Source of the DNA: a virus
Taxonomy: Duplodnaviria; Heunggongvirae; Uroviricota; Caudoviricetes
Virus record (IMG/VR): IMGVR_UViG_3300001688_000696
Length of the DNA stretch: 64,000 bases
Strand: one strand, 5' to 3'
Positions within the stretch are counted from its first letter, which is position 1; each line of letters starts with the position of its first letter. The notes below the pieces were generated by a model. The model ran no database searches and was not told the origin of the DNA. It worked only from the letters and a program-made list of their open reading frames with translations. This document shows positions 21,082 to 22,061 of the stretch, one piece after another. The position numbers were made by a program, and so were the translations under genes.

Positions 21082-21291
21082 ATGGATTTTCAAACCGATG
21101 AGACAACGATTTATTGTGGGCTGGAAGCGGCGAGAGACGCCGGGCTAAAATCCGTCGGAATTGATTTGAGCGCAACCTATTGCGAGAATGCAAAAAGCAA
21201 TTTTCTGAAAAATTGCTCGTCAAAACCTATTGACAAGCAATGTGTTTTTTGGTATAATATATATATATCACAAAGCCAAAGGTGGTTTTAG
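21082..21291 (+). pseudogene. degenerate C-terminal fragment of an N6A/N4C DNA methyltransferase
   Basis: TIYCGLEAARDAGLKSVGIDLSATYCENAKSNF aligns by eye to ...[37 protein letters not shown] of the methyltransferase at 50116 (motif I lost). Confidence 0.4.
21229..21259 (+). promoter_or_regulatory. sigma70 promoter (TTGACA 21229-34; TGgTATAAT 21251-59) followed by a (TA)7 tract
   Basis: Read directly. Drives leader ORF 1 and the tRNA array. Confidence 0.65.
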
Positions 21292-21293
21292 CT

Positions 21294-21380
21294 ATGATTA
21301 CCAACATCTTCTTCTCATTCTCGTTTTCCGGTTTTTCCGAAAAGGCGCGTGCCTTTTGCGGTCTGGTTGACGTTGCATAG
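21294..21380 (+). CDS. leader peptide 1 (28 aa) MITNIFFSFSFSGFSEKARAFCGLVDVA
   Basis: RBS aaaggtgg 5 nt upstream of ATG. 6 Phe codons (TTC/TTT) and 4 Ser codons (TCA, TCG, TCC, TCC) clustered in 10 residues. Lies upstream of a hairpin+T-run and the Phe/Ser tRNA array. Confidence 0.5.
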   Translation: MITNIFFSFSFSGFSEKARAFCGLVDVA

Positions 21381-21418
21381 AGAGAAGATGTCATAAGTAA
21401 CGCCGCCACAGAAATCCA

Positions 21419-21460
21419 AGCCCAAAAGCGCACGCCAAATCGGACGTGGGCTTTTTATTT
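21419..21460 (+). terminator. hairpin + TTTTT (candidate attenuator terminator)
   Basis: gccca..cg / cgtgggc stem with a bulge, then ctttttatttt. Confidence 0.45.
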
Positions 21461-21501
21461 TGGTCGTGTAGTTGGAACTTTAAAAATCAAAAATGGAATA
21501 T

Positions 21502-21576
21502 GCCAGGGTAGCTCAGGTTGGTCAGAGCGCCGCACTGAAAATGCGGAAGTCGTCGGTTCGATTCCGACCTCTGGCA
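21502..21576 (+). tRNA. tRNA-Phe (GAA)
   Basis: Manual cloverleaf: acceptor GCCAGGG/CUCUGGC, D-arm GCUC/GAGC, anticodon loop CUGAAAA, T-loop TTCGATT, discriminator A. No CCA encoded. Confidence 0.75.
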
Positions 21577-21580
21577 CTAT

Positions 21581-21653
21581 GCCGCTGTGGTGTAGGGGGT
21601 TTGCACGCGTCGCTGAAGACGACGAGGCAACCGTTCAACTCGGTTCGGCGGCA
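21581..21653 (+). tRNA. tRNA with GAA anticodon (Phe-like variant, G37)
   Basis: Acceptor GCCGCTG/CGGCGGC, anticodon stem CGTCG/CGACG with loop CUGAAGA, T-loop TTCAACT, discriminator A. G at position 37 is atypical for Phe. Confidence 0.55.
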
Positions 21654-21663
21654 CTGATAGTAT

Positions 21664-21748
21664 TGGCGGTTGCAGGAGTGGATTAACTGGCTCGCCTGGA
21701 AAGCGAGATGCCCGCAAGGGCGCAAGGGTTCGAATCCCTTACCGCCAG
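21664..21748 (+). tRNA. tRNA-Ser (GGA), class II
   Basis: Anticodon stem CTCGC/GCGAG with loop CUGGAAA. Long variable arm gccc-gcaa-gggc. T-loop TTCGAAT. Discriminator G. Unusual U1:A72. Confidence 0.65.
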
Positions 21749-21754
21749 CCTTGT

Positions 21755-21841
21755 GGAGGAATGCCGTAATTGGTTAGCGGAGCGGTTTGCTAAACCGTCC
21801 AACCCGAAAGGGTTGTCGGGGTTCGAGTCCCCGTTCCTCCG
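21755..21841 (+). tRNA. tRNA-Ser (GCU), class II
   Basis: Acceptor GGAGGAA/TTCCTCC. Anticodon loop TTGCTAA. Variable arm caaccc-gaaa-gggttg. T-loop TTCGAGT. Discriminator G. Confidence 0.65.
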
Positions 21842-21848
21842 CCTTTTT

Positions 21849-21933
21849 GGAGGGATGGCCGAGTGGTTTATGGCACTTGTCTTGAAAACAAAAGGGGCGC
21901 AAGCCCCCGTGGGTTCGAATCCCACTCCCTCCG
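21849..21933 (+). tRNA. tRNA-Ser (UGA), class II
   Basis: Acceptor GGAGGGA/TCCCTCC. Anticodon loop CTTGAAA. Variable arm gggg-cgcaa-cccc. T-loop TTCGAAT. Discriminator G. Confidence 0.6.
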
Positions 21934-21976
21934 CCTTATAATCCAAATTATAGTAATTTGGATTATATTCTATCCC

Positions 21977-22061
21977 GGAACGGTGACAGAGCGGTCGATT
22001 GCGGCTGTTTCGAAAGCAGTTGTGGGGCAACCCACCGGGGGTTCGAATCCCTCCCGTTCCG
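21977..22061 (+). tRNA. tRNA-Ser (CGA), class II
   Basis: Acceptor GGAACGG/CCGTTCC. Anticodon stem GCTGT/GCAGT (with G-U pairs) and loop TTCGAAA. Variable arm gtgggg-caa-cccac. T-loop TTCGAAT. Discriminator G. Confidence 0.6.

Follow-up and report, generated by a model that had tools for sequence, protein, structure and literature searches.

Here we report that the two clusters of transfer RNA (tRNA) genes on a 64,000-nt stretch of DNA from a virus record (Caudoviricetes; IMG/VR IMGVR_UViG_3300001688_000696), hereafter the window, are each preceded by a consensus promoter, a short leader open reading frame (ORF) rich in codons read by the tRNAs directly behind it, and an intrinsic terminator, and that the same order recurs at two arrays outside the window. 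We consider it quite likely that these cassettes are ribosome-mediated (leader-peptide) transcription attenuators with tRNA genes as their cargo. For the first of them, the original prediction had described a promoter, a 28-aa ORF preceded by a ribosome-binding site, a hairpin with a T-run and six tRNAs for phenylalanine and serine; all of these are present at nearly the same positions, and the leader-peptide attenuator gating tRNA genes that it proposed is supported by matched leaders at three further arrays as well as by ribosome-footprint folding. The features of cassette 1 are the following:

21230-21258, plus strand: promoter (sigma-70), TTGACA-17-TATAAT with a TG extension, 12/12 consensus matches
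21280-21285, plus strand: Shine-Dalgarno (SD) sequence AGGTGG, 8 nt 5' of the leader 1 ATG, read from the sequence
21294-21380, plus strand: leader ORF 1, 28 codons, MITNIFFSFSFSGFSEKARAFCGLVDVA and stop
21309-21338, plus strand: regulatory run, codons 6-15, UUC UUC UCA UUC UCG UUU UCC GGU UUU UCC
21305-21316, plus strand: segment A (CAUCUUCUUCUC), pairing with A' when the RNA is ribosome-free
21343-21367, plus strand: segment B, 5' strand of the antiterminator, within the ORF and complementary to the terminator 5' arm
21380-21390, plus strand: segment A' (GAGAGAAGAUG), directly 3' of the stop codon and complementary to A
21416-21437, plus strand: segment B', including the terminator 5' arm, with either B or the 3' arm as partner
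21424-21463, plus strand: intrinsic terminator 1, hairpin 21424-21455 (-15.3 kcal/mol) plus UUUUUAUUUU
21502-22062, plus strand: cargo 1, tRNA-Phe(GAA) x2, then tRNA-Ser(GGA), Ser(GCU), Ser(UGA) and Ser(CGA)

In leader 1, Phe is encoded six times (three TTC, three TTT) and Ser four times (TCA, TCG and two TCC), the same count as had been given before, and nine of the ten codons in its regulatory run are cognate to the Phe and Ser tRNAs behind it. The 210-nt leader is more stably folded than all of its 200 dinucleotide shuffles (z = -3.8). Directly behind the terminator hairpin follows the T-run TTTTTATTTT. The hairpin carries a G.G mismatch in the window strain, its 3' arm (21449) reading GUGGGC where sister strains (L002:8869-9190) have GUGCGC and a perfect stem of -18.9 kcal/mol, which leaves the window version weaker by 3.6 kcal/mol. 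In addition, the (TA)n tract directly 3' of the -10 element (window 21259-21268) is 8 nt longer in the sister strains.

The second window cassette serves glutamate, and its promoter overlaps the stop codon of a 62-codon ORF upstream:

25425-25453, plus strand: promoter of cassette 2, TTGACG-17-TATAAT with a TG extension
25475-25478, plus strand: SD sequence GGAG, 8 nt 5' of the leader 2 ATG, read from the sequence
25487-25546, plus strand: leader ORF 2, 19 codons, MFNFSAFEEREVEETTAVR and stop
25508-25528, plus strand: regulatory run, codons 8-14, GAA GAA CGU GAG GUC GAA GAA
25496-25516, plus strand: segment A (UUCUCUGC...GAAGAACGU), pairing with A' when the RNA is ribosome-free
25533-25552, plus strand: segment B (CAGCCGUGCGCUGAUUGGUU), 5' strand of the antiterminator, holding the leader stop codon
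25557-25578, plus strand: segment A' (GAGCGUUCUUCUUCGCAGAGAA), complementary to A
25589-25607, plus strand: segment B' (ACCAAUAAGGCGCACGCUG), including the terminator 5' arm
25597-25630, plus strand: intrinsic terminator 2a, GGCGCACGCUGGAAACAGGUGCGCC (-17.4 kcal/mol) plus G and U8
25632-25661, plus strand: further, less stable hairpin (-9.5 kcal/mol) with U6, which may serve as a back-up terminator
25682-25986, plus strand: cargo 2, tRNA-Glu(UUC), Glu(CUC), Glu(UUC) and Glu(UUC)

The run of leader 2 holds four GAA codons and one GAG codon, against three tRNA-Glu(UUC) genes and one tRNA-Glu(CUC) gene in the cargo. Both window cassettes have the promoter-spacer motif TGTGTTTTT, which occurs at one other, non-promoter site in the window, and the terminator stem GCGCAC/GUGCGC in common; going by their sequence, the two are paralogous.

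If a leader senses the tRNAs that form its cargo, other arrays should carry leaders rich in their own cognate codons, and this held for three out of three further arrays, the Glu array among them. Another lies on the same element, about 6 kb to the left of the window (locus L014, in which L014:8990 corresponds to window position 1), where a promoter with 12/12 consensus matches is followed by a 35-codon ORF, MVNVWFGIIVNIANIAGNAADVDVSVSHEGKGVKK, a terminator plus U7, and 15 tRNAs for eight amino acids (Asn, Gly x3, Met, Asp, Ala x3, Ile x2, Val x3 and Trp). In this leader, 23 of the first 24 residues fall within the amino-acid set of the array, and a cognate codon is present for each of the 13 non-Met anticodons, with one codon per isoacceptor, including GCA/GCG/GCC, GUC/GUA/GUG and GGA/GGU/GGG. 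There is no further consensus promoter inside the 2.6-kb array. The cassette seems to act as one unit: an IS605 TnpB-containing insertion polymorphism, seen in one strain (L026:8801-10108), ends directly 5' of the -35 element of the leader promoter, with the cassette left intact. Between the 15 tRNAs, we also observed GC-rich spacers that hold neither genes nor promoters (L014:3447-3689, 3919-4129 and 4413-4992); one of them (~3925-4000), which shows a GGTTCGAATCC T-loop along with an acceptor-like stem but is called by neither ARAGORN nor Rfam, could be a tRNA that is degenerate or unusual, or else an element for processing.

The third further array is located on a JGI metagenome contig of a distant relative (L011), found via a homologue of a giant immunoglobulin (Ig)-like protein of 1439 aa, which at 44% identity is the sole feature in common with the window. 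There, a promoter, a 27-codon ORF (MFAFSVLPQPRPANHNDAVDGYFVLCR) and a terminator precede tRNA-Arg(GCG), Pro(GGG), Pro(CGG) and Pro(UGG), and the leader run CCA CAG CCG CGU CCC (Pro-Gln-Pro-Arg-Pro) offers one codon for each of the four anticodons behind it. The promoter stands ~100 nt 5' of the ATG with a structured 5' untranslated region (UTR) between them, as compared with 30-40 nt in the other three cassettes. Overall, all four cassettes possess a consensus promoter, an SD sequence and an ATG ORF (28, 19, 35 and 27 codons in leader 1, leader 2, L014 and L011, respectively), followed by a GC-rich terminator of -14.8 to -20.2 kcal/mol with a U-run, 40-120 nt 5' of the first tRNA, and the promoter scan of the cassettes detected no consensus promoter between terminators and tRNAs. 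ARAGORN identified ten tRNAs in the window and 15 just outside, with Rfam tRNA scores of 44-71 bits. The Glu and Arg/Pro leaders begin with M-F-x-F-S (window 25487-25507; L011 codons 1-6), and the Phe/Ser leader has NIFFSFS. This Phe/Ser-rich start may be ancestral, may be needed for A:A' pairing with a GAGAA-type segment, or may couple every array to the status of the Phe and Ser tRNAs.

Investigating the codon match by binomial statistics (background cognate frequency for leader 1, 0.107), we observed 10 cognate codons, Phe or Ser, out of 27 in leader 1 (P = 3e-4), 5 Glu codons out of 18 in leader 2 (P = 5e-3) and 26 cognate codons out of 34 in the L014 leader (P = 7e-6), while the five-codon cluster of the L011 leader has a chance probability of 3e-4. 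Fisher combination of the simple binomials of the three follow-up arrays (5e-3, 7e-6 and 0.1) gives 8e-7, and 4e-9 for all four. Thus, a matched leader was found in four out of four arrays, two in the window and one each on L014 and L011, and in a leader-by-array matrix the top enrichment of each leader over background was for its own array. That such codon bias might be common in random small ORFs of this genome, which the original prediction had named as a way to fail, is not borne out: among the 427 ATG ORFs of 15-45 codons in the six frames of the window, the run of leader 1 is reached by leader 1 itself and equalled by none of the other 426, and the run of leader 2 is likewise unmatched by any other small ORF in the window. 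Moreover, the same automated search, applied to six arrays of three unrelated phages (Erwinia pEa_SNUABM_9, Cronobacter S13 and Bacillus FADO), yielded no significant upstream ORF (best P 0.02 or worse).

The second line of evidence is the RNA switch. Leader RNAs were folded with a ribosome footprint masked from -15 to +12 of the A-site and with the transcript cut 5' of the terminator 3' arm, mimicking the order of synthesis, and the specific B:B' probability served as readout; the looser measure, pairing of the 5' arm with anything upstream, is misleading for leader 2 and L011. With the ribosome mask on full-length transcripts, equilibrium folding mostly kept the more stable terminator, the switch being visible only in cut transcripts. 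From 5' to 3', the segments of both window leaders follow one another as A (at the codon run), B and A', then B' with the 5' arm of the terminator, and finally the 3' arm and the U-run. In the ribosome-free RNA, A:A' is predicted to be paired and the terminator formed, and A:A' together with B:B' is possible only as a pseudoknot. B:B' complementarity amounts to -26.7 kcal/mol in leader 1 against a shuffle mean of ~-14 (P = 0.001, dinucleotide shuffles), and to -24.8 kcal/mol in leader 2 against ~-12.5 (0 out of 1000 shuffles as good; P < 0.001).

Folding had been proposed earlier as a check for mutually exclusive antiterminator and terminator structures, and these are predicted by the modelling, most clearly for leader 2; in each window leader the switch falls at its last cognate codon. 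For leader 1 the B:B' probability is 0.01 in free RNA, ~0.9 with the ribosome on codons 2-14, 0.65 on codon 15 (the last Ser) and 0.00 on codons 16-27, and for leader 2 it is 0.00 in free RNA, ~1.0 on codons 2-13, 0.67 on codon 14 (the last Glu) and 0.00 from codon 15 to the stop. The last regulatory codon would therefore be the final stall position that allows antitermination, which is the classical design. The L011 antiterminator (CCGUUGAUGG versus CCAUCAACGG) is predicted at 0.52 with the ribosome at CCG (codon 10) and at ~1.0 at codons 11-14 (CGU, CCC and the next two). The available strains, being 98.5-99.5% identical, are too close for covariation analysis.

In the proposed mechanism, the strong constitutive sigma-70 promoter would initiate transcription, and a ribosome would load on the SD sequence of the short leader ORF and trail the RNA polymerase. 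When charged cognate tRNAs are plentiful, the ribosome would clear the codon run and cover or leave strand B, A would re-pair with A', and the terminator, made of B' and the 3' arm with its U-run, would form, so that transcription ends before the tRNAs. If any cognate tRNA is scarce, the ribosome would stall on the run and hide A; B would then pair with B', the terminator would be blocked, and the polymerase would continue into the array. Fresh tRNAs would end the stall, a negative feedback that would match the supply of each tRNA group to the demand for decoding. From the sequence we infer that the leader ORFs are translated, that the hairpins terminate and that readthrough follows tRNA availability, and such control might serve to save resources, to set dosage or to answer the cleavage of host tRNAs.

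Several points weigh against this interpretation, whose basis throughout is computation (sequence and RNA folding). The four cassettes come from two related lineages and are thus not fully independent in evolution. By simple codon count the L011 leader is weak (P = 0.1), and the ORF-to-terminator complementarity is marginal in both L014 (P = 0.075) and L011 (P = 0.06). The original prediction held that leader 1 carries exactly the codons decoded by the tRNAs downstream, which is true of four of the five distinct anticodons; tRNA-Ser(GCU) reads AGY, and AGY codons are absent from leader 1. No terminator is evident 3' of array 1, so that the ORFs at 22099-22251 and 22282-22998 may be co-transcribed as possible cargo. 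With a ribosome on its stop codon, leader 1 is predicted to regain the antiterminator (0.57-0.90), as the ribosome then masks A' and not B; a helix enclosing the bound ribosome may be sterically unlikely, and release may restore A:A'. In L014 the antiterminator (GUGUCCCACGAGG versus CCUCGCCGGGACAC) is the default and is disfavoured only with the ribosome at codons 28-34. As modelled, the L014 logic is that translation through the 3' part switches the array off, and not that termination results when there is no translation; the cassettes hence do not all follow one logic, and kinetics and sterics outside the equilibrium model come into play. Furthermore, amino-acid starvation would also cause readthrough, a situation in which extra tRNA is no help.

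Considering other explanations, the anatomy might reflect direct tRNA sensing without a ribosome, similar to a T-box, with the anticodons of free or uncharged tRNAs pairing with the codon run and stabilising the antiterminator. Every run necessarily complements the anticodons of the tRNAs behind it, and in two leaders the run sits in the segment that changes its pairing partner. Yet each leader has a properly spaced SD sequence, an ATG, an in-frame run and a stop codon, with all cognate triplets in a single reading frame, and one leader would need to sense 13 different anticodons; moreover, the leaders have no Rfam T-box match and no T-box sequence, and the switch boundary corresponds to the footprint of a ribosome on the last cognate codon. 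We regard this explanation as very improbable. Scarcely more probable is an unregulated layout in which promoter, small ORF and hairpin form a separate small-peptide or small RNA (sRNA) gene whose codon match is coincidence or shared ancestry, and in which the tRNAs owe their transcription to a constant leak through the terminator or to weak promoters that they possess themselves. Weak hexamers (TTGGTC-17-AAAAAT, 8/12), below the threshold of the promoter scan, do lie between terminator 1 and the first tRNA, the common N-terminal F-x-F-S-like motif suggests common descent of the leaders, and the window cassettes resemble each other in promoter-spacer and terminator-stem sequences. However, despite this ancestry the runs have diverged, each tracking its own array (Phe/Ser; Glu; eight amino acids; Pro/Arg), the combined P for the codon match is ~8e-7, the ORF-to-terminator complementarity lies above that of shuffles, and consensus promoters between terminators and tRNAs are missing.

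A different question is whether the attenuator is real and serves mainly as counter-defence, sensing the depletion of host tRNAs by anticodon nucleases and supplying replacements. We consider this rather unlikely as the main purpose, though clearly less so than the two preceding explanations. In T4, Rnl1 mends tRNA after cleavage by the anticodon nuclease PrrC, and a gene for a T4 Rnl1-type RNA ligase (PF09511; L014:8361-9827, its 5' part at window 1-838, minus strand) is encoded ~3 kb from the 15-tRNA array; the element resembles a very large phage or plasmid, and relatives carry their own transfer-messenger RNA (tmRNA). Nevertheless, the arrays have no tie to any particular nuclease, they span at least 12 amino acids, far wider than the known targets of such nucleases, and plain supply-and-demand homeostasis accounts for the same anatomy. 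The role against tRNA-depleting host defences put forward in the original prediction is speculation, the ligase gene next door being its sole hint. With ribosome-mediated attenuation as the preferred reading, the cassettes can be compared with known systems.

Leader-peptide attenuation is established for amino-acid operons and pheST, whereas bacterial tRNA genes are held to be controlled mainly at their promoters (growth rate, stringent response) and by processing. Like the cassettes described here, trpL, hisL, pheL-pheA and pheM-pheST of Enterobacteria consist of a promoter, an SD sequence with a 14-35-codon ORF containing a regulatory run, and a terminator. In those attenuators the antiterminator is set by the site at which the ribosome stalls and the signal is charged cognate tRNA, as is proposed for the present cassettes. 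These attenuators control biosynthetic enzymes or a synthetase, whereas here the cargo would be tRNA genes, so that the sensed molecule and the product are the same species and the feedback is direct. Nearest in spirit is pheM-pheST, in which the charging of tRNA-Phe is sensed to control the synthetase. In contrast to amino-acid-operon leaders, those found here can be multi-specific, with up to 13 anticodons covered by one leader and often one codon per isoacceptor, and the classical segment '2' is split into B and A', A:A' and B:B' being topologically exclusive. Neither window leader matches Rfam Phe_leader, Trp_leader, His_leader, Leu_leader or Thr_leader (gathering threshold or E <= 5); an unrelated hairpin on the minus strand (23002-23113) gives a weak Leu_leader match, 28 bits versus a gathering score of 50. 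As is proposed here, T-box riboswitches are 5' leaders that link tRNA status to a terminator/antiterminator choice by codon-anticodon recognition, but they have no ORF or ribosome, recognise one tRNA via a single specifier codon and the acceptor end, and control synthetase, biosynthesis or transporter genes, whereas an SD sequence and an ORF with many codons to be read are present here. The T-box model (RF00230) had no match in 21150-25700 at E <= 5 and none in L014 2400-5900 at E <= 0.1.

Like the arrays described here, those of T4, T5 and jumbo phages gather many tRNA genes in clusters, with an enzyme for RNA repair encoded close by; they are carried by large non-chromosomal elements, as the present arrays probably are too. 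The arrays of the three control phages are of mixed tRNA identity without a matched upstream ORF, while both window arrays and that of L011 serve one or two amino acids each and the 15-tRNA array eight. E. coli pheV was considered as a precedent and rejected, the upstream region in MG1655 being a promoter only with no Phe-rich ORF. In the full-text literature searched, which leaves most subscription journals outside its coverage, leader-peptide attenuation of tRNA genes is not described, in agreement with the statement of the original prediction that it knew of none for tRNA arrays. Polycysteine leaderless short ORFs of mycobacteria are amino-acid-responsive attenuators of downstream genes (bioRxiv 10.1101/834739); they are similarly short and rich in one codon type, but their cargo is protein operons of Cys metabolism and not tRNA.

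Regarding the element itself, it measures at least 296 kb, with contigs of up to 367 kb, and consists mostly of ORFans with few PHROG matches. Positions 20000-27000 had no megablast match among GenBank phages or PLSDB plasmids, and distant blastn matched only generic tRNA-Ser genes. The window contains no housekeeping genes, and neither capsid nor terminase was seen; in addition to the Ig-like protein, a surface protein, it encodes a GGDEF protein and four N6/N4 DNA methyltransferases (PF01555), at the following positions:

14734-15597, plus strand: methyltransferase gene
50116-50874, minus strand: methyltransferase gene
55861-56700, minus strand: methyltransferase gene
59062-59931, plus strand: methyltransferase gene

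In the 64-kb window, no protein neighbouring these four carries a restriction-enzyme Pfam domain, and such orphan methyltransferases fit a large mobile element that shields itself from host restriction. Two other uncultured lineages encode homologues of the Rnl1-type ligase (49% and 40% identity). As a route to relatives the ligase led to nothing in IMG/VR; two JGI loci with the 49%-identical ligase have a tmRNA (L019:20780-21167; L020:17434-17821) with the tag AKNTFSKVFAGMSGLAALPVAA, a further function in the rescue of translation, and no tRNA array, the ligase being the only common feature, and the relative with the 40%-identical ligase has no tRNAs. Other routes were discarded: further homologues of the Ig-like protein lay on bacterial chromosomes or tRNA-free contigs, and a 238-aa ORF downstream led to near-identical strains and one IMG/VR contig without tRNAs. 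Together, these features of the element suggest a very large phage or plasmid that is concerned with keeping tRNAs intact, but no hallmark gene decides the question.

Apart from the tRNA cassettes, we noted several putative RNA features. A perfect promoter at 26923-26950 (plus strand) leads into a ~100-nt transcript without a start codon, which ends at a strong terminator (27053-27078). This sRNA candidate (window 26923-27085) and the 5' UTR of the L011 Arg/Pro leader (~830-720, minus strand) both contain the core motif ACACUUCUACAGU with a long closing stem, the outer stem differing in sequence in L011, which makes the ACACUUCUACAGU RNA a candidate conserved structured RNA; a relaxed pattern of this motif, tried as another route to relatives in IMG/VR and GTDB, returned chance matches in coding genes. 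Beside the sRNA candidate, near window ~27100, an HNH homing-endonuclease gene is present as a strain insertion polymorphism (L002:14996-15814). On the minus strand at 48090-48550, a perfect promoter (48550-48522) is followed by a GC-rich, structured-looking stretch in an ORF-free gap, which has no Rfam match at the gathering threshold and is possibly another non-coding RNA. Two near-identical promoter and 5' UTR cassettes at 2419-2510 and 3541-3630 (plus strand), each made up of gttgcaatatacaNgcaNtaTTGACAtatgtNaatagtgcNtgTATAAT, an A-rich leader and then AGGAGGGAACATG, are a duplicated expression module, with a different small gene behind each copy.

In conclusion, it seems on balance probable that a lineage of very large uncultured extrachromosomal elements places every tRNA array behind its own codon-matched leader, as direct supply-and-demand feedback on tRNA genes. 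To the same degree we favour the view that the leader works as a brief test stretch on which nearly all isoacceptors have a codon, up to 13 anticodons, and on which the progress of the ribosome sets the transcription of those tRNAs. Such feedback may let the element detect and compensate host tRNA depletion or a mismatch in codon usage, separately for each isoacceptor group. If true, a direct feedback of tRNA supply and demand on tRNA genes through attenuation would be described here for the first time, and the finding would mean that a cell or mobile element can gauge its decoding capacity for given codons and adjust the matching tRNA pool directly. Leader codons mirroring the anticodons behind them would furthermore provide a searchable signature for phage and plasmid tRNA arrays, and synthetic biology would gain compact sensors of tRNA availability that can be programmed. 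Since the leaders would reveal which shortages matter to the element, the long-standing puzzle of tRNA carriage by large phages and plasmids would become directly testable.

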